From a virus: a stretch of 64,000 bases of DNA. The stretch is from positions 241 through 64,240 of the IMG/VR virus record IMGVR_UViG_3300010383_000010; one strand, 5' to 3'. Below the pieces are notes generated by a model that made no database searches, was not told the origin of the DNA, and saw only the letters and a program-made list of their open reading frames with translations. Shown here piece after piece: positions 41,312 to 49,586 of this stretch (position 1 is the first letter of the stretch; each line of letters begins with the position of its first letter). A program made the translations under genes and the position numbers.

Positions 41312-43627
41312 CTAAGCGGCCAGTTTTTCGCTGGCCAGGCGCACCTTCACGCCCTTGCCCTCGATTGTCGGGCGCTCGATTTCGCCCGACAGCACAAGGC
41401 GCTTAATGGCCTGCTCAACCATACGATCGTCGGCCTTCGATACGCCGCGCTTGCGCACCAGCGTCGACTGCGCCAGCGAGCCGTCCTTGCTTTGGCGAAG
41501 CGCGGACAGGATGGCCTTGCACAGTTCCTCGAATTGCGATCCGGCCATGTATTCGTCGACGCCGCGATTGATGGACACAATGGACGCCTGCACGATGGCG
41601 TGGCCCCACTCAACGTCCTCAACCGTAACGGCCGGCTTGGCGCTGTCACGGCTTAACGCGCGGATTGTCGCAAGCTTAATCGTGTGCTCCGCGGTTCGCC
41701 CTATAATGCCCTCGGACGCTCCGTTATCGCCAATTTCTTCAATCTGCCAATCCTCGATTTTCGTCCATCGCCGTTCAGCCTCCTCGTCAGCCCAAGGCAC
41801 AGCAAGCAGGGCCGGCCGAATGTGCGGATTCTTCCAGTTCTTGGGCATATTCTCACTTGTGACGGGAAACCTGTCTCGACTTTCCTTGATCGCGCCAATC
41901 AATGACGTCGGCGTAATAAGGATTGCCGGCGCCTTATGCCTGTCCGGTCGCAGGGTAGGCTCCAGAACCACCAGACGCGCTACAAAACCATCTGTGAGGC
42001 TTTCCTCCGTGATGCCCTTGTAGAACGTGGTCGGCGTCGACATGCCCATAAGTGACACGGTGGGCGAGAACACCGGCTCGGCAGAGCTATCCCGCGTTGG
42101 GTCGGCATGTTCCTTTCCGGACCACATGCCGTTCGATTTGGAGAATATCTCCAGCAGCACCTTGCGTATGGTTTGCGCCCAGCTCGACGAGCCGCGCCCT
42201 GTTACGGACTGAAGCACGACGCCCATCTCGTCCCACGGCATAAGGAACACGGGGCGACGGCGCACGATCTTTTCGATTGCGGATCCGCTGGTGACTTCGC
42301 CGGGGCCGATAAGGTCCGGCATCTGCACATCGACAGCAAGCGTTTGCACCGTCTTCAATGGATGCTCCTTGCCGAAGCCAGGAGGTGCAATGCCGACCAT
42401 ATAGACGTTAAGCCCCGCGCCTGTCGGCCCAACGGCCCGGCGGCCGAACAGCACGGACATGAACGCCACGGCCGCCATGATGGAGAACTCCGGCACGGGC
42501 CGCCGCGATGTGTCGTAAACCCACTGGCTGATAGCGCCAAGTAAGCCGCCGGCTTCCTGCGGCGTGAACGGGTTATAGTATTTGTTGTCGTTGGCTGGCT
42601 TTTTGGGCGTGGGGGATGCGGGTGCAGGTGCTGCCGGAAGGGCGGTTGGCTTAGCCGCTTTCTTTGTCATCTTCTCCCGCATCTTGGTTGTGTCCACAAA
42701 CTCAATCTCCTTGTAGTTGAGTTTGCCCTTGAGCCAATCGGTGGCGACGTCGAGGCCGCAGCTAAAGACGTTCATCACCACATCGAGCGCCGTGTGGTTT
42801 TCGTTTGCGCCCCAATCGGTGATGCCCTTCGCGCTGAACGAAAGGTTCGGGTTTTCAACGCCGCGCCATTCCGCCACGGCACGGTAACGCCCGTCGCCGC
42901 TGCGCTTGCACTGTGGGAGTTTGAGTTCAGGCACCCATAGGTCGAGATTTGCGAGCGCCAGGTCGTTGATCTCGCGCCAAATCGTGTCTCGCGATTCAAC
43001 CTCATGGTACTCATGCACAATAGGCTCGATATAGCCAAAGCGCGACAGCACCGCGGCGATCTTGTCGGCTATGTCGTCGTCAAGAACCGGCAGGTCTTCG
43101 GGGGCGTAGTCCTCCAGCGGATCGCCAAGCCACTGGTATGACTCCTGCGTATCAGGGTGGATGGTTGGTGGGCAGACGGTTTGCTTTCCGTAGGCGAGAA
43201 GGTCGACAATGCGTTCCTGCTTCCCGAAAACGGAAATGCTGAAGGCGCGGCTGACAATCTTGTCCGAGCCGCGGAAGAACGCCGAATAGCCCTTCTGGCC
43301 GCGCTTCTTGACGGGGCTATCAGGGATGATTTCGGCCAATGCCGCGCGGATTGTTTCGTCGTCTGTGTCAATGTCGACCACCTTTACCATGTGGTCTAGC
43401 ACAACGCAGACGCCGCCTTGCGGCCAGTCGCACCAGGTTGCCACCTCTTCGTCGGTCGGCATACGATCGCAGTATTCATTCCAGCCGAGATTTCCGAACC
43501 AGTATCCCTGCGAATAAGCGCCGGGGCGTTTGCTGCCCGGTCGGCACGGGATGGCGCGCCAACCTTGGTCGACGAGCTTGGCGCCGACGCGAGCGTAGGG
43601 GGATGGTATCTTGGGGAGTGCCGCCAC
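41312..43627 (-). CDS. Bifunctional DNA primase/polymerase with DUF3987-like C-terminal domain
   Basis: GWRAIPCRPGSKRP, VVDIDTD, KQTVCPPTIHPDT; GFGKEH, DEMG, DGFVARL. Confidence 0.85.
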   Translation of the reverse strand: MAALPKIPSPYARVGAKLVDQGWRAIPCRPGSKRPGAYSQGYWFGNLGWNEYCDRMPTDEEVATWCDWPQGGVCVVLDHMVKVVDIDTDDETIRAALAEIIPDSPVKKRGQKGYSAFFRGSDKIVSRAFSISVFGKQERIVDLLAYGKQTVCPPTIHPDTQESYQWLGDPLEDYAPEDLPVLDDDIADKIAAVLSRFGYIEPIVHEYHEVESRDTIWREINDLALANLDLWVPELKLPQCKRSGDGRYRAVAEWRGVENPNLSFSAKGITDWGANENHTALDVVMNVFSCGLDVATDWLKGKLNYKEIEFVDTTKMREKMTKKAAKPTALPAAPAPASPTPKKPANDNKYYNPFTPQEAGGLLGAISQWVYDTSRRPVPEFSIMAAVAFMSVLFGRRAVGPTGAGLNVYMVGIAPPGFGKEHPLKTVQTLAVDVQMPDLIGPGEVTSGSAIEKIVRRRPVFLMPWDEMGVVLQSVTGRGSSSWAQTIRKVLLEIFSKSNGMWSGKEHADPTRDSSAEPVFSPTVSLMGMSTPTTFYKGITEESLTDGFVARLVVLEPTLRPDRHKAPAILITPTSLIGAIKESRDRFPVTSENMPKNWKNPHIRPALLAVPWADEEAERRWTKIEDWQIEEIGDNGASEGIIGRTAEHTIKLATIRALSRDSAKPAVTVEDVEWGHAIVQASIVSINRGVDEYMAGSQFEELCKAILSALRQSKDGSLAQSTLVRKRGVSKADDRMVEQAIKRLVLSGEIERPTIEGKGVKVRLASEKLAA

Positions 43628-44274
43628 TATGCTGCCTTCCTTTTCCACTGAACGAGGTTGCCGGCTTCGCGCCATAGGTGTTCGGGCGTGTCGTCGTATA
43701 TGCGATGCAAGTGCCCGTCTCCTTCGTGCTGTCCGCCAATACGGTATTGAAAATTGTTGTACCGAGCGGCATAGTCGAGGGCCGTCTCTTCCCCGTAAAA
43801 CAGATCGGCGAAGTCCTGGTCACAAAAGTCGTCTAAAGCGAAAACCCCTAAGCCCCATCTATTCCAACTGTCGTTTTTGAACGGGCCGTTGCCAACAACC
43901 ACAATTTCGTACTGCGGTCTTGATTTCGATTCTTCCACATACGAATCGAATTCTTCTTCTGCCATTTCGTCTATTGGTTTCCTTGGCGGAGAAATCGCGC
44001 TTGCCGCGCGAAATGCTTTATCGGCGACGATCTTGGCCTGTTTAATTGCGGCATCTTCGGCATCCGCAAAGTTAATCGGCTTGACTTCAACGAGCGCCTT
44101 GACCTTGCCCTTCAGCATGAAATCCGGCGCCCAGCCATCCAGGTCGAACGGCTCATAATCCCATTTCCAGCCGCATAGATCGAAGAACGCCGCCCAACGC
44201 GCTTCTAGGCGCGAGCGGAAGTTGACGCCCGCATAGGTCGTCGGAATTGCCTTGATGTCGTATTTCATTGTCAT
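43627..44274 (-). CDS. PD-(D/E)XK-type nuclease-like protein
   Basis: PTTYAGVNFRSRLEARWAAFFD..WDYEP..WAPDF..LVEVKP. Confidence 0.78.
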   Translation of the reverse strand: MTMKYDIKAIPTTYAGVNFRSRLEARWAAFFDLCGWKWDYEPFDLDGWAPDFMLKGKVKALVEVKPINFADAEDAAIKQAKIVADKAFRAASAISPPRKPIDEMAEEEFDSYVEESKSRPQYEIVVVGNGPFKNDSWNRWGLGVFALDDFCDQDFADLFYGEETALDYAARYNNFQYRIGGQHEGDGHLHRIYDDTPEHLWREAGNLVQWKRKAA

Positions 44275-44399
44275 TCCTTCTTCCCCGCTGATGCGTAGGA
44301 AAGGGCGAGGTCTTTTGGTGTGGTGGTGGGTGTGCTGTTGTCAGGCTGCAAGGCGGGTGTCCTCGGTGGTGTGGGTGGTCAGGTGAAACAGGGCGCCCG

Positions 44400-44738
44400 T
44401 TAGAATGGGGCGTCTTGGTTGCGCACCAATTCCCGCATATGCCGCGACGTTCCGTCGAACACCGTCTTCCACAGCATCTTACGCTCCAGTTCATCCATGT
44501 CCGCCATGTCGGTTTTGCCAAGCTCGGCGCAGTAGTTGCCGGCGTCCTCGTCAACCATTTCTAGCGCCTTAAGCTTGTATGCGTCGGGCCGCTTTGCGCG
44601 GCGGATATCTTCAGCAAGCATTGAGCAATCCGCGCATAGCCATTTGGGGTCCGTGTCTTTGTAGGAGGTGAAGCCTATGCCTACGCCAACCGCGCGCTGG
44701 GAGCACCAGTGGCAGGTGGTGGGTGTATATTCATCCAT
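44400..44738 (-). CDS. DUF6511-like zinc-binding protein
   Basis: CHWC..LCADC..AGNYCAELGKTDMA..APF. Confidence 0.65.
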   Translation of the reverse strand: MDEYTPTTCHWCSQRAVGVGIGFTSYKDTDPKWLCADCSMLAEDIRRAKRPDAYKLKALEMVDEDAGNYCAELGKTDMADMDELERKMLWKTVFDGTSRHMRELVRNQDAPF

Positions 44739-44855
44739 TGGCGCGCTCCTTGTGCTCACGGATGCGAAAACCAAACCCGCCCTTACCGGCCATGATTCCG
44801 CCGTCCGTCTGCCCGCTTGTCCTGGTCGGCGAAGTGCCCATAGATTTGCCGTCCT

Positions 44856-46568
44856 TCACCCCGCTGCCCCCCCCACCGTTGCCGCGGCGCCGCCGAATAA
44901 CGGTAGGTTATCGTTGTCGGCCTGCTTGATTGCCCTCGAGCGACGTGTAGCCGGCCCGGCGTTTGCTAGCCGCAACCGCTCGGCAATGTCAGCTTGATAT
45001 TCTTCCTCGCGCTCAATCAGGATGCATCGCATTCCCTCGCGCCACGCAGCCTCGCCCGTGCTGCCGCTGCCGGCGAATGGATCCAGCACAAGTCCGCCCT
45101 TCGGCGTTACAAGCCGCACCAACCATTGCATCAGGTCGACAGGCTTGACGGTCGGATGCTTGCTGCCAATCCGGTCCATCTTGTCGGCTTTGGCCGTATA
45201 GAAGAAGCGGGCGGCTGAGCCGGAGTCGGCATAGCTTGGCATCTGCACCATGGAGCCAAAGCCTTCATGCGCGATACCTTGCTGGCCAGACTTGCCATTA
45301 CTGACCGCGCCGTCTCGATCAGGAAACGCCGCCACAACCTCGTCGCTGCCGTCGTGTACGATGTTGGCGGGCCAGCGGCCGAGAGGTGACGCCTCGGTTT
45401 TCACACCTTCGACAGAACCGTGTTCACGCCAAATGCCGCTAACATTGTTCCGCGAACAATTGGCCGCGTGATCTTCCCCGGCTTCTACCCGGCATCCATC
45501 CACATTAATTGCACCCGTGCCGTGCTCAAGCACGTTCTCGGCTACCGTACCGACGAGCGGCTTGCGGGCGAGGCAAATGGGTTCCCATGCCGGCTTGAGC
45601 GCTGTTCCTATGCCGTCAGGAATAATTGGTTTGCCGCACCTTCCGCAATTCGGCCATGCTCCGCCATCTTGTGACTGCGATTGTCCGGCCACAGTTCCAG
45701 ATTTGATCTCTCGTTGTTCAGCGGCCTGTGGTCCACATGATGCACGACTTCTGTTCGTATTAGCGGACGGCCCACCCAATCCGCCATCACTCGACGGTGT
45801 TCCATCACGTATCCGTCCCGCCTCGCCATCGACAACAGATGACGCGGACACCTCACATATCGAACCGACACGTAATTCCCCCGACGCCTTCTTAGAGTCA
45901 CTCCGCCCTTCCATGCCGGATTCTCCGTCCCGAATTTCGGCGGAGGAAAGTTGCTCCCATCCGGCAGAGGATGTGCCTTGTTCCGGCACGCTCGACTGCA
46001 GAACTTTCCCGTGTTCTTTACCAGAGTGTTCGGTCTCCTGTACATCGGCGTTCCGCACAGATCGCAGGTCGTGTTGCAGAACCGATGCGGTTGCTTCGCA
46101 TCCCGCACACGCGCATCTAATACCGTCGAGTTTGCGGCTGACGTTATGGCTTTTGGGGAAGCCACTTCCATACAAATATCCAAGCTGATCCCTTATCTCA
46201 AACCCAGCATCCTCGATGGCAACCGCCATCCGGTGATAAGTGCGTGTCCCGCTAAAGGCCACGACATGCCCGCCGGGCTTCAGGATGCGCAGGCACTCGG
46301 CCCAAAACACCTCGCTAAAGGCAACCTCGCCGGTATCCCATTGCTTGCCCATGAAGCCGGCAGAGGCGCGACTGTAGACGTCGCCATCCTTGGTTGGCTT
46401 GGCGTTAGCTCCGCCGAAACGCTTCTGAATAGACACCAGCGCATAGGGCGGGTCCGTCACGATGCTATCGATTGAGCAGTCAGGCAAGCTGCGCAATACG
46501 TCGCGGTTGTCGCCGCCGTATAGCGTGACCTTGCCGTCGAGGTGTTCAGTTTTTGTAAATTCGCCCAT
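44856..46568 (-). CDS. N4/N6 DNA methyltransferase (beta class) with about 170-aa insertion
   Basis: GDNRDVL, IVTDPPY, LKPGG, YGSGFPKS, GTALKPAWEPI, HPTVKP..LVRLVTP.GGLVLDPFAGSGSTG. Confidence 0.92.
   Translation of the reverse strand: MGEFTKTEHLDGKVTLYGGDNRDVLRSLPDCSIDSIVTDPPYALVSIQKRFGGANAKPTKDGDVYSRASAGFMGKQWDTGEVAFSEVFWAECLRILKPGGHVVAFSGTRTYHRMAVAIEDAGFEIRDQLGYLYGSGFPKSHNVSRKLDGIRCACAGCEATASVLQHDLRSVRNADVQETEHSGKEHGKVLQSSVPEQGTSSAGWEQLSSAEIRDGESGMEGRSDSKKASGELRVGSICEVSASSVVDGEAGRIRDGTPSSDGGLGGPSANTNRSRASCGPQAAEQREIKSGTVAGQSQSQDGGAWPNCGRCGKPIIPDGIGTALKPAWEPICLARKPLVGTVAENVLEHGTGAINVDGCRVEAGEDHAANCSRNNVSGIWREHGSVEGVKTEASPLGRWPANIVHDGSDEVVAAFPDRDGAVSNGKSGQQGIAHEGFGSMVQMPSYADSGSAARFFYTAKADKMDRIGSKHPTVKPVDLMQWLVRLVTPKGGLVLDPFAGSGSTGEAAWREGMRCILIEREEEYQADIAERLRLANAGPATRRSRAIKQADNDNLPLFGGAAATVGGAAG
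45608..46171 (-). CDS. HNH endonuclease nested in another frame inside the methyltransferase
   Basis: CDLC, KFCSRAC, GTENPAWKGG, YVMEHRRVMA..GRPL..EVVHHVDHRPLNNERSNLELW; start uncertain. Confidence 0.85.
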   Translation of the reverse strand: MEVASPKAITSAANSTVLDARVRDAKQPHRFCNTTCDLCGTPMYRRPNTLVKNTGKFCSRACRNKAHPLPDGSNFPPPKFGTENPAWKGGVTLRRRRGNYVSVRYVRCPRHLLSMARRDGYVMEHRRVMADWVGRPLIRTEVVHHVDHRPLNNERSNLELWPDNRSHKMAEHGRIAEGAANQLFLTA

Positions 46569-46569
46569 C

Positions 46570-47079
46570 CTAAGCCACCCTCACCGTAACCGTATCCTCA
46601 CCCGTCTTAAGCACCGCACCGGGCACATTGTCGTTTGCCAAAACAGCCAATAGCGCTTTCTTATCCGGCACGCGCTCGATGCGCACATAGGCGTCGGGCA
46701 ACTTCGTGGCGTCCTGCACGTCGACGCTATCGCGACCTTTGCTAATGCTAATGGTGGCTTCCACCAAGCTTGCTTTGGGCAAGCCGGCCGCCTTTAGGAC
46801 GCGCAGCATAAAAACACGCATGGCTTCCTTCTTGCGTTCGGCGCGCGCTTTGCGGCTGGACAGGTCCGCCATGCGGGCCGCTATGGCTTTGCCCATGCTA
46901 TCGGCGTCGCGCTCCTGGTTGAGGATGCGCGTCAGTACGTCGAAAGCCGCGGTGCTGCCTTCCAGCATGTCTTTGCGGAGGTCGGCATCCTCGGCAAGCT
47001 CTGGATAGGCCGCGAACAGGGAGTCGATGTCGGCCAGAACGTTGGCGACGTCGGCTTGGAGGTAGTTGGGGTTAGACAT
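46570..47079 (-). CDS. Siphovirus Gp157-family protein
   Basis: Coiled coil then LPDAYVRIERVPDKKAL..VPGA. Confidence 0.82.
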   Translation of the reverse strand: MSNPNYLQADVANVLADIDSLFAAYPELAEDADLRKDMLEGSTAAFDVLTRILNQERDADSMGKAIAARMADLSSRKARAERKKEAMRVFMLRVLKAAGLPKASLVEATISISKGRDSVDVQDATKLPDAYVRIERVPDKKALLAVLANDNVPGAVLKTGEDTVTVRVA

Positions 47080-47687
47080 TATGCGGCCCTCCGCTTTGCT
47101 TCTTTAAGTTCGCGCTGCGCAACGATAAGCTCCCATTCCTCTTTCAGGATTGGCCGCGCACCATCGAACTCAGGCCGGAAGTTTTTGCACTCATCATTGA
47201 CTGTATATCCGCGCGCTTCATAGTCCGCGACTTGCTTGGCAATATCCGGTACGTAGAGCGCAAACGGTCCATCCGGCGACAAGTACAGAAAGCCGCATCC
47301 AGAAGCGATGCCGCTGCTGGTCCCGGTCATGCCGTCACAATCTTCGGCCTTGTACCGAAGCGTTGTCGGCACGCCCAACAACTTAGCCAGTTCGTACCCA
47401 CGCTTGTCGTATCCGGCGTTCGCTTCAAACTTCTGCGCCCACTCTGTTTTAGCTTTTGGCGTGCTGTATCCGTGGCGGTTTGGCTTTTTAAAGTCCTGGT
47501 GCGGCCGCCCCTCAAACACAACGCCGCAAACAGTTCCGTCCAGAATGGATTCAAAGTACCGAGTTACACCAAGCGGCTCGATAAGTTTAATGTTGCGCGC
47601 TACCGTTGCCTCACGGTCGGCAACGTGCTTGTGCGCAAGCTCAAGCGTCTTGCCGCCCTCAACCAGAAAATATAGATATTCGGTCAT
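47079..47687 (-). CDS. Hypothetical protein (202 aa)
   Basis: GGAGG RBS, coupled to Gp157. Confidence 0.75.
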   Translation of the reverse strand: MTEYLYFLVEGGKTLELAHKHVADREATVARNIKLIEPLGVTRYFESILDGTVCGVVFEGRPHQDFKKPNRHGYSTPKAKTEWAQKFEANAGYDKRGYELAKLLGVPTTLRYKAEDCDGMTGTSSGIASGCGFLYLSPDGPFALYVPDIAKQVADYEARGYTVNDECKNFRPEFDGARPILKEEWELIVAQRELKEAKRRAA

Positions 47688-47764
47688 TTCTTATTCCTCC
47701 TACATCCTACGGCCAGTTGTGCCCCGCACAGCGCACCGTATACGTTATTGCGTATATCTGTGTT

Positions 47765-47938
47765 TTATGCGGCCTTGCGTATATTCCCCGCCACATACTC
47801 CCGCACAGCATCATCCTGCGCGCGGCCGATAGCGCCTTTTGGCACTATGATGTAGCCGGCGCGATTAAGCGCCTCGATTGCGCTAATGGCCTTCTCGCCG
47901 TCCAGTTCGTCGGTCAAAATGCTAAAAGGGGATCTCAT
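47765..47938 (-). CDS. Small hypothetical protein (57 aa)
   Basis: GGAG RBS, overlaps helicase end; AIEALNRAGYIIVPK. Confidence 0.5.
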   Translation of the reverse strand: MRSPFSILTDELDGEKAISAIEALNRAGYIIVPKGAIGRAQDDAVREYVAGNIRKAA

Positions 47939-49586
47939 CCAACTCGCTCCATTTTACGTTGCCTATGCCGCTGTCGTTATCATTCGCCGCCTGCGGCGCA
48001 TTATCGTTAGCGGCGTCACCTGCCCTATAGTTCTTAACCGTCCAGTATTTGCCATCCGGCGCGACGCTAATTTCCGCGGTATCGTTTAGCTCCCGCTGGC
48101 GCTCCAAAAACTGCAACACGGTTTTCGGGAATGGCCGCTGCCCGCCATGCGCATTCCAGAACCTGTCAGTCTTGCTCTTGAAGTACCCTTCGTGCTCCGG
48201 CCCCAGCCAATCCGAAATGCGCGTTAGGCCGCACATATATGTGACCTTCACGCTGTCTTTTTTTCCCGGCTTGCCTTGGTGGAAGTCGAAGCGGCGGCTG
48301 GTTACGGGACGCCATTCGGCGGCGCCCTTGCTCAATATGGGCAAATCCGCCGCAACAGCCTGAACCTTGACTTCCGGCTCCGGAAATTCATGGCCACACT
48401 CCACACATTGACGCGCCGCCGCATGGTTGATGCACTGGCATTCGGGACAGACACGGATTGGTGCCTCACCTTCGCCTTTGCCGGGCTTCTTGATTTGCAC
48501 ATCGTCGATTGGCCCAAGAGTCCGGACAACGTTTGCGAAATCGAGGATGAGACATGTATCTTTGCCGGGTGCCAGCCGAAGCCCCCTGCCGCACTGCTGG
48601 ATATACAATGCAGGCGACTTCGTTGGTCTCATCAGCGCGATAAGGTCGATGGCCGGATAATCGAAGCCGATCGATAGAACGTTGACGTTCGTCAGGCACT
48701 TGATGCGGCCGGCCTTGTAAGCCTCGATGACGCGGACTCGCTCGGCGGACGGCATTGAGCCTTCCACCATTTCGGCCACAACGCCCCTCCTGTTCATTTC
48801 GTCGCGGATTTCGGCCGCATGGTCCACACCAGCCGCAAACGCTATCCACGCCCGCCTGTCGCCGCCGTAGCGTATGATTTCGTCGACTGCAGCCTCGGTG
48901 ATTTCCGACTTGTTAACGGCGCGCTCCAACTCGCCCGCGATGTACTCTCCGCCCCGTGTGTGTACGCCAGAAACGTCAAACGTTGTCGCCGTGCCCTTGC
49001 TAACGGGCCGCGTTAGATAGCCCTCGTCAATAAGCTGCGCTATGCCGACTTCGTATGCGATGGATTTGAACAACGGATCCTCGCCGTCCGTTAGCATGCC
49101 CATATCCATCCGAAACGGCGTGCCCGACATGCCGAGAATGCGCATGTCGGGATTGATAGCGCGCAGCGCGTCGATAAACTGCCGATACATGGTCGTGCCC
49201 TTCGGGCTAACCAGGTGCGACTCGTCGATAATCAGGCAGTCCGTCCAGCCAATGCGTTCGGCCTGCGCATAAACCGACTGGATGGAGCAAAACAGGATTT
49301 GTGCCCGCGTCGAGCGTTGCCCGAGCGCCGCGCTATTAATACCAGCGGGAGCAAACGGCCAGGTTCGCAGCATGGCCTCAAAGTTTTGCTTCACAAGCTC
49401 CCGCGTATGCACGGCGCACACAAAGCGCGCCTCCGGGTATTTGGCGATAACCCGCTGGATGAAACCCGCCTGCATAAGCGTCTTGCCGGCACCAACCGAC
49501 GCGACGAGAAGCGTGGAGTCGACGCGCTCCAATTCGGCGTCGACCGCTTCTATCGCGGCTGATTGATAAGGCCTCAATTCCAACAT
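47922..49586 (-). CDS. SF2 DEAD/DEAH-like helicase with C-terminal Zn finger
   Basis: LRPYQ, SVGAGKT, IIDESH, SGTP, QQCGRGLR, CPEC..CVEC. Confidence 0.92.
   Translation of the reverse strand: MLELRPYQSAAIEAVDAELERVDSTLLVASVGAGKTLMQAGFIQRVIAKYPEARFVCAVHTRELVKQNFEAMLRTWPFAPAGINSAALGQRSTRAQILFCSIQSVYAQAERIGWTDCLIIDESHLVSPKGTTMYRQFIDALRAINPDMRILGMSGTPFRMDMGMLTDGEDPLFKSIAYEVGIAQLIDEGYLTRPVSKGTATTFDVSGVHTRGGEYIAGELERAVNKSEITEAAVDEIIRYGGDRRAWIAFAAGVDHAAEIRDEMNRRGVVAEMVEGSMPSAERVRVIEAYKAGRIKCLTNVNVLSIGFDYPAIDLIALMRPTKSPALYIQQCGRGLRLAPGKDTCLILDFANVVRTLGPIDDVQIKKPGKGEGEAPIRVCPECQCINHAAARQCVECGHEFPEPEVKVQAVAADLPILSKGAAEWRPVTSRRFDFHQGKPGKKDSVKVTYMCGLTRISDWLGPEHEGYFKSKTDRFWNAHGGQRPFPKTVLQFLERQRELNDTAEISVAPDGKYWTVKNYRAGDAANDNAPQAANDNDSGIGNVKWSELDEIPF

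Follow-up and report, generated by a model that had tools for sequence, protein, structure and literature searches.

A putative mobile HNH endonuclease cassette in a loop of a phage DNA methyltransferase whose reading frame is kept open

Analysis of a 64,000-nucleotide stretch of viral DNA (positions 241 to 64,240 of IMG/VR record IMGVR_UViG_3300010383_000010; referred to below as the window) revealed a DNA methyltransferase gene which contains, within an inserted cassette, a complete gene for an HNH endonuclease in another frame of the same strand. The window comprises nearly all of the 64,346-base record, which is rated as complete by CheckV. This arrangement is best explained, with a probability of about 0.8, by a mobile HNH homing endonuclease cassette that occupies a loop of the methyltransferase and keeps the host frame open, so that no splicing is needed. 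A splicing-free strategy of this kind, with the endonuclease placed in a tolerant loop, had been proposed in an earlier note made from the sequence alone, whose description of the sequence proved correct in every element; the proposal gains support from the avoidance of stop codons, the codon-position pattern, the modelled disorder of the insert, the patchy distribution of the cassette and the incongruence of the two gene trees.

The methyltransferase gene and its nested HNH gene

As shown in Table 1, the methyltransferase is encoded by one open reading frame (ORF), which according to the ORF list is without stop codons throughout, cassette included. A Pfam search with the 570-aa product identified the N6_N4_Mtase domain (PF01555; E 5.9e-27, above the cut-off) in two stretches, one on each side of the insert, and a search of PHROG assigned the protein to the DNA methyltransferase family phrog_67 (E 2e-66). 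The order of the motifs, with DPPY (motif IV, aa 39-42) preceding FAGSGST (motif I, near aa 498-504), is that of the beta class.

In the methyltransferase frame, 174 residues separate GFPKSHNVS from GIGTALKP (aa 319-326), in agreement with the original description of an uninterrupted methyltransferase with a Ser/Gly/Glu/Arg-rich insert of about 170 residues. The insert is composed mainly of S (14%), G (14%), A (9%), E (8%) and R (7.5%), and hydrophobic residues make up 15.5% of it, compared to 27.5% of the remainder of the protein. Loop lengths in 117 homologues indicated that the cassette stands in place of a native loop of 54-71 aa. Its junctions were defined by alignment with an insert-free allele (L109), as the earlier note had advised; this gave a cassette of approximately 525 nt. 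The DNA likeness of the window to L109 continues up to CATAACGT. The TAG of the HNH gene was correctly placed in the G-I-G codons with which methyltransferase conservation restarts; at this position L109 has GGC TGG GGC (G-W-G).

An AlphaFold2 (AF2) model of the methyltransferase, based on 50 homologues, showed a catalytic core with predicted local distance difference test (pLDDT) values above 90. Within the insert, aa 156-299 had pLDDT values below 50 and no secondary structure. This model fits a disordered loop that would be tolerated by the methyltransferase.

The nested ORF (191 aa; positions 45608-46183) lies on the same strand as the methyltransferase and is offset by +1 (46568-46183 = 385 = 3x128+1). 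It contains a zinc finger (CDLCG...FCSRAC, of the form C-x2-C...FCS-x2-C) followed by the motifs NPAWKGG, EHRRVM and VVHHVDHRPLNNERSNLELWPDNRSH, and it matched PHROG HNH families with an E value of 1.3e-15. The reported presence of a complete HNH protein in another frame of the same strand is thus upheld. Homologues form 435 protein clusters with 58-81% identity and a typical length of 145-200 aa. The Pfam family HNH_3 is matched by 14 of 18 relatives of the window HNH (best E 1e-8). In the HNH alignment (A2) the H, N and H columns are invariant, and the window protein keeps all of the catalytic and zinc-finger residues that are invariant there. The AF2 model of the HNH protein had a mean pLDDT of 72. 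A Foldseek search of the PDB with this model gave no match at E <= 0.001, and a profile search of PDB sequences gave matches at chance level only.

The frame of the HNH gene is open upstream of the GTG at 46108 for 25 codons, as far as a TTG at 46183, and there reaches conserved methyltransferase sequence. Of 42 non-redundant relatives, 39 have a start codon 8-16 codons upstream of the first Cys of the zinc finger (53% expected), and in 32 the HNH start is ATG (27% expected). The equivalent start is GTG, 14 codons before CDLC, both in the window and in its nearest relative (L001). Since a start codon, mostly ATG, is enriched at a set distance before the zinc finger, the HNH protein is likely to be initiated independently, at its own internal start. 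A scan for sigma-70 promoters detected no internal promoter for the HNH gene.

In eight relatives (L005, L020, L022, L044, L050, L057, L063 and L065) the motif [AG]TGCG[CGT]TA[CT]CATAC, absent from the window, was found just 5' of the HNH ATG. It is placed 18 nt before this codon and is translated as MRYHT in the HNH frame and as (A)LPY.H in the methyltransferase frame. The motif may act as a signal for translation or provide an alternative start.

Selection on the two frames, distribution and mobility

In total, 105 loci were collected. An HNH profile yielded 80 from viruses and 24 from bacterial or archaeal genome bins, and one contig was found via the methyltransferase. The earlier note had called for a search for similar dual-coded inserts, and 90 of these loci proved to share the layout: the HNH gene lies between the N- and C-terminal halves of a homologous methyltransferase, the halves are in one frame, the HNH frame is always +1, and no stop interrupts the methyltransferase frame. 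Six further loci reach the end of their contig with this frame still open.

The avoidance of stops was quantified for 73 non-redundant loci (GC content 0.39-0.72), and expected numbers were obtained by shuffling synonymous codons within each HNH gene. No stop was observed in the methyltransferase frame, compared to 422 expected, while the third frame contained 598 stops (556 expected). Correspondingly, T never occupies the third position of an HNH codon that is followed by an AA, AG or GA codon (0/1874), although it does so in 21% of cases elsewhere. For the window HNH gene alone, 7.0 stops were expected in the methyltransferase frame and none was observed; not one of 5000 synonymous shuffles was stop-free. 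The third frame of the window contains 9 stops.

Nucleotide diversity at HNH codon positions 1, 2 and 3 was 0.386, 0.322 and 0.570, respectively. Between the window and L001, whose HNH proteins are 91% identical, there are 19, 8 and 60 differences at these positions (60 of 87 at the wobble position). Over the same DNA, the HNH frame had a mean amino-acid identity of 55% and the methyltransferase frame one of 31%. Since diversity is lowest at HNH positions 1 and 2 and highest at the wobble position, and identity is higher in the HNH frame, the HNH reading is the constrained one. These sequence comparisons indicate that the HNH gene is under ordinary purifying selection, and that the methyltransferase frame is mainly held open. 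The methyltransferase-frame motifs MEGR, VLQ and GRLRDGA are seemingly conserved, but they are shadows of HNH motifs.

The possibility that a 223-aa antisense ORF (positions 45517-46188, plus strand), which spans the whole HNH gene, is a third coding frame was also assessed. Only 11 of 74 relatives have open antisense frames; such frames are therefore not kept open, and this ORF was dismissed as a chance by-product.

The lineage was traced in 234 IMG/VR stretches, comprises the 435 protein clusters mentioned above and is found in metagenomic phages and in prophages of many phyla. A backbone tree of 117 methyltransferase sequences, from which the loop was left out, requires at least 12-15 changes in the presence of the cassette. 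The backbones nearest to that of the window lack the cassette (P0007 with 79% identity, followed by P0065 and P0013). Approximately unbiased (AU) tests on 45 cassette-bearing loci rejected the methyltransferase topology for the HNH alignment and vice versa (p about 1e-74). Moreover, identity is mosaic: in the window gene, parts of both flanks are nearer to those of the cassette-free L109 (about 90%, nt 121-360), and the cassette is nearer to that of L001. Homing with co-conversion of the flanks, or frequent recombination within the gene, would produce such a pattern of patchiness, mosaic flanks and incongruent trees.

Related HNH genes were also found in other states and at other sites. In five loci (L101, L018, L095, L094 and L073) they are carried, in the +1 frame, by true inteins of the same methyltransferase family (CLSED...VFVTGN/SGFPKS), at the usual position of the endonuclease domain, and the intein frame is open across the HNH gene. 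In two low-GC contigs (L061:2113-3664 and L069:1103-2704) the HNH gene is a separate gene, which splits the methyltransferase into an N-terminal ORF (with DPPY and GFPKS) and a C-terminal ORF (with motif I); this is the genes-in-pieces outcome of the same insertion. In L036 and L091 it is free-standing beside the methyltransferase. A different hidden HNH gene (189 aa; L110:1887-2456) was detected in the chromosome of Nitratireductor kimnyeongensis, at the GFPKS-GxGTSLKP loop site of the prophage methyltransferase P0105, which corresponds to the site of the window cassette. It is ShiLan-like (see below), with zinc fingers on both sides and in the +2 frame; the methyltransferase frame is open here too, and the NCBI annotation includes the methyltransferase only.

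In locus L008 (1573-2259) the methyltransferase reads through the HNH gene. Further downstream it is broken by a second ORF, which has zinc-finger and H-rich motifs, and the part containing motif I continues in another frame. The second ORF may represent a second endonuclease insertion.

The arrangement in the window would be accounted for by the following steps: (i) the variable loop between GFPKS and GxGTALKP was exchanged for a mobile cassette bearing an HNH homing endonuclease gene of the free-standing type; (ii) the methyltransferase would be translated straight through the cassette, read as a hydrophilic, disordered linker of approximately 175 residues, and would stay active; (iii) translation of the HNH protein, predicted like the read-through methyltransferase as a separate product, would begin in the +1 frame at an internal start of its own (GTG 46108 in the window, usually ATG in relatives); (iv) selection has purged all stops from the methyltransferase frame, so that the host gene survives without intron or intein splicing; (v) the HNH protein most likely cuts cassette-free methyltransferase alleles of co-infecting phages or prophages; and (vi) repair from the occupied allele would then copy the cassette in (homing). 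What had been called overprinting of an HNH gene onto the methyltransferase seems rather to have been the insertion of a pre-existing HNH gene, with the methyltransferase-frame reading of the cassette as a by-product.

The methyltransferase is of the orphan phage type and is located within a replication module (41312-49586, minus strand). A 787-aa protein of this module is syntenic with the Prim-Pol/AAA_25 genes of L001 and L109. The module also holds phrog_21138 and phrog_19707 proteins, a Mu Gam-like protein (46570-47079) and a 554-aa DEAD helicase, and its gene order is common to the window, L001 and the cassette-free L109.

Table 1. Features of the methyltransferase gene and its cassette (positions in the window)
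Feature	Position	Strand	Basis
DNA methyltransferase ORF, 570 aa, beta-class N6/N4 type	44856..46568	(-)	ORF list, PF01555, phrog_67
Methyltransferase N-terminal conserved part, aa 1-144, last residues GFPKSHNVS (aa 136-144)	46137..46568	(-)	Homologue alignments
Inserted cassette, ~525 nt; methyltransferase-frame aa 145-318	45615..46136	(-)	Junctions vs insert-free L109
Upstream Cys cluster C152-A-C154-A-G-C157, methyltransferase frame, overlaps probable HNH start codon	46098..46115	(-)	Sequence
HNH endonuclease gene, 166 aa, probable GTG start 46108 to TAG 45608-45610, +1 frame	45608..46108	(-)	Homologues, PHROG
HNH catalytic core (EHRRVM ... VVHHVDHRPLNNERSNLELWPDNRSH), +1 frame	45671..45799	(-)	Pfam HNH_3 stretch, aa 129-167 of 191-aa ORF
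Downstream Cys pair C308-G-R-C311, then GKP, methyltransferase frame	45636..45647	(-)	Sequence
HNH stop TAG within GGC ATA GGA (G-I-G) codons, where methyltransferase conservation restarts	45608..45610	(-)	Sequence
Methyltransferase C-terminal conserved part, aa 319-570, GIGTALKPAWEP ... motif I	44856..45614	(-)	PF01555, alignments, L109 comparison

Alternative explanations

Several observations weigh against a functional, homing HNH cassette. The window HNH itself matches Pfam HNH_3 (PF13392) with an E value of 0.004 and 17.2 bits, under the 24.8-bit cut-off. Its best match among solved structures (VIA-align), the homing endonuclease I-HmuI, is weak (Z 4.2, 66 residues, rmsd 4.0). A Shine-Dalgarno-like motif precedes the HNH start in only 9 of 39 relatives, and none is evident before GTG 46108 in the window. 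The search of sequencing runs retrieved no RNA run with the sequence, and no run with more than 29% of its words. Finally, the patchy distribution could partly reflect recombination of whole gene segments, not endonuclease-driven homing. As regards the identity of the nested ORF, all of the sequence evidence taken together points to an HNH gene, although the copy in the window falls short of the curated Pfam threshold.

The low Pfam score, the GTG start and the lack of a visible ribosome-binding site would also suit a relic, in which the HNH protein is dead and the region is kept only by the need for an open methyltransferase frame. This is improbable, as all of the invariant catalytic and zinc-finger residues are present, and the excess of wobble differences from L001 at 91% HNH identity speaks for recent purifying selection on the HNH frame. 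The scarcity of Shine-Dalgarno motifs, together with the 25 open codons that extend upstream of GTG 46108 into conserved methyltransferase sequence, could instead mean that the HNH protein is made as a fusion to the N-terminal part of the methyltransferase by +1 ribosomal frameshifting. We consider this even less probable than a relic, given the strong enrichment of a start codon, mostly ATG, at a set distance before the zinc finger. The upstream open stretch varies from 13 to 174 codons, and no sequence in it is common to the lineages (no search for a slippery site was made); gene callers give stand-alone products of 145-200 aa, and the HNH gene is a separate gene between the methyltransferase fragments in L061 and L069. 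A further explanation is that the HNH and the methyltransferase form a functional pair, of restriction-modification or addiction type, in which the nuclease attacks unmethylated DNA and the nesting secures co-inheritance. The two are physically inseparable in the window, and free-standing HNH genes occur beside methyltransferases in L036 and L091 as well as in phages Sashimi and Tiff81 (PMC11855218). Such a pair, which the earlier note had also suggested, is unlikely, since the strongly incongruent HNH and methyltransferase trees reject co-evolution and the closest methyltransferase backbones have no HNH gene. In addition, related HNH genes occupy three or four sites in the enzyme and are also found in inteins at the usual position of the homing endonuclease domain, the best structural match is a homing enzyme, and the methyltransferase is an orphan enzyme encoded among replication genes.

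Introns and inteins are the usual homes of phage HNH genes, and relatives of the window HNH are carried by true inteins. The cassette might therefore be removed, as an unrecognised intron, as a degenerate intein or by translational bypassing, and the open frame would then be incidental. The observations made here leave this very little probability. The complete lack of stops across GC contents of 39-72% requires translation of the methyltransferase frame through the cassette, since stop avoidance would serve no purpose in a cassette that is taken out before or during translation. An Rfam search of positions 44000-47500 (E <= 1) detected no intron or other family across the gene, its sole weak match being a snoRNA model just outside, and the RNA fold at the upstream cassette junction was no stabler than shuffled sequences (z = 0.0). 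From GTG 46108, the HNH ORF takes up 501 nt of the cassette, and only about 25 nt lie outside it; no room is left for a ribozyme core. Without an Rfam match or space for a P3-P9 core, and with strong selection against stops in the exon frame, the cassette does not belong to the group I introns. A Pfam search of the methyltransferase ORF found no Hint or intein family. The insert starts with RKLDGIR and ends with IIPD/GIG, and the terminal residues of inteins (N-terminal C or S; C-terminal HN followed by C, S or T) are not present. The earlier statement that intein ends and intron structure are lacking thus agrees with these searches. Because there is no Hint domain and there are no splice-junction residues, the host-frame translation of the cassette must remain in the mature methyltransferase.

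Cysteine dyads, known elements and implications

The Cys-containing segments CACAGC and CGRC, which the earlier note had named as the bounds of the insert, are both present (Table 1). Among 50 non-identical alleles, C-x(1-2)-C occurs in the first 45 insert residues of 44 and C-x2-C in the last 45 residues of 46; 43 alleles have both dyads, 4 have a single one and 3 have none. In the majority of relatives, the HNH start comes after the upstream dyad, which HNH coding therefore cannot explain. At L038:2989-3507 (and also in L040, L041 and L043) a dyad-flanked HNH cassette (YCGC ... ICARCGKP) is placed before SGFPKS, which is the intein site; this cassette has no intein motifs, and the native loop is kept downstream of it. 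The occurrence of a dyad-flanked cassette at a second site indicates that the dyads belong to the cassette. In the AF2 model, pLDDT was 57-68 at the dyads (63-68 at the downstream pair), compared to 30-40 in the middle of the insert. A complex prediction for the two Cys-bearing segments and zinc (score 0.14, mark 0.34) carries no weight either way. Closure of the loop by zinc, which the earlier note had suggested as a possibility, gains indirect support from the co-occurrence of the dyads and from their presence on the cassette at the second site; a zinc knuckle between the loop ends would be plausible. These sequence features also raise the tentative idea that the cassette is adapted in two frames, as an HNH gene and through host-frame Cys dyads that might bind zinc and staple the ends of the linker of about 175 residues together; we regard this as possible but rather doubtful.

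A family of mycobacteriophage methylases has been described with three insertion elements, namely a LAGLIDADG endonuclease, an intein and an unexplained domain termed the ShiLan domain (Gosselin et al. 2023, PMC9957025). This domain was subsequently identified as an out-of-frame HNH gene in the methylase gp65 of phage ShiLan and its relatives (Arsenault, Gosselin and Gogarten, Genes 2025, PMC11855218). Its GTG start lies 18 bp into the insert and its TAA in the last four bases; the methylase frame is stop-free, neither an intron nor an intein is involved, the insert was modelled as a loop, and the element is apparently actively homing (PMC11855218). Gp60 of Pacc40 is the second published case (PMC11855218).

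ShiLan gp65 (with DPPY, GFPKS, GWGTALKP and ARKP) belongs to the same methyltransferase family as the enzyme of the window, and the two HNH proteins are homologous (about 35% identity, tblastn E 8e-10). The elements also resemble each other in that (i) the insert is stop-free in the host frame and is filled by a complete zinc-finger HNH gene in another frame of the same strand, (ii) this gene starts with GTG a few codons into the insert and stops at its very end, (iii) no intron or intein signature was detected, (iv) the host-frame insert is modelled as a loop of low confidence, and (v) the distribution is patchy and disjunct and the phylogenies are discordant. By these features the window cassette is an element of the ShiLan kind. 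It is not a ShiLan domain in the strict sense (same site, same frame). The ShiLan element follows GWGTALKP and leaves the native loop in place, whereas the window cassette lies between GFPKS and GIGTALKP, about 60 codons upstream, and replaces this loop; it thus marks a fourth site in the methyltransferase family. Relative to the methyltransferase, the ShiLan HNH is in the +2 frame and the window HNH in the +1 frame. The window HNH has one zinc finger, which is N-terminal, while the ShiLan HNH has two flanking ones, and the host-frame Cys dyads at both ends distinguish the window cassette from the ShiLan element. In the literature searched, elements of the ShiLan kind are described from actinobacteriophages only, in contrast to the wide host range of the window lineage. 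The window cassette therefore represents a separate lineage, at a new site, of a kind of element published in 2023-2025.

Two other systems are comparable. Inteins whose homing endonuclease is encoded in a reading frame of its own are a subject of a survey of Actinobacteriophage inteins (bioRxiv 10.1101/2025.01.02.630785). Relatives of the window HNH (41-64% identity over the best segment) occupy the +1 frame inside inteins in the same manner (site YG/C...N/SGFPKS), but the window cassette, unlike these, has no Hint domain or splice-junction residues. The homing endonuclease gene mobE of Aeromonas phage Aeh1 reportedly splits nrdA into genes-in-pieces without an intron or intein. In this case too, a free-standing homing endonuclease gene resides in the gene of a conserved enzyme, and L061 and L069 show the same outcome; in the window, by contrast, the host gene is unsplit and encodes a single polypeptide that runs through the insert in another frame.

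An intron, an intein or an intergenic position is generally regarded as necessary for a homing endonuclease gene, and this family shows a third route, in which the endonuclease is encoded in another frame and the host reads through. The published cases come from a handful of mycobacteriophages. The window lineage is much larger, and the selective upkeep of the host frame can be measured in it. Its HNH family was seen in four states: read through in the host frame, inside an intein, splitting the host gene, and free-standing. The one part that could be new is the two-frame adaptation. If true, the zinc staple would make the cassette a portable, splicing-free substitute for an intein, able to settle at different surface sites of the methyltransferase. 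Wherever the methyltransferase ORF is intact, the nuclease is overlooked by gene callers, and the annotation of the methyltransferases shows a low-complexity region without explanation. The family also provides a natural system for determining how much disordered insertion the loop of an enzyme tolerates.

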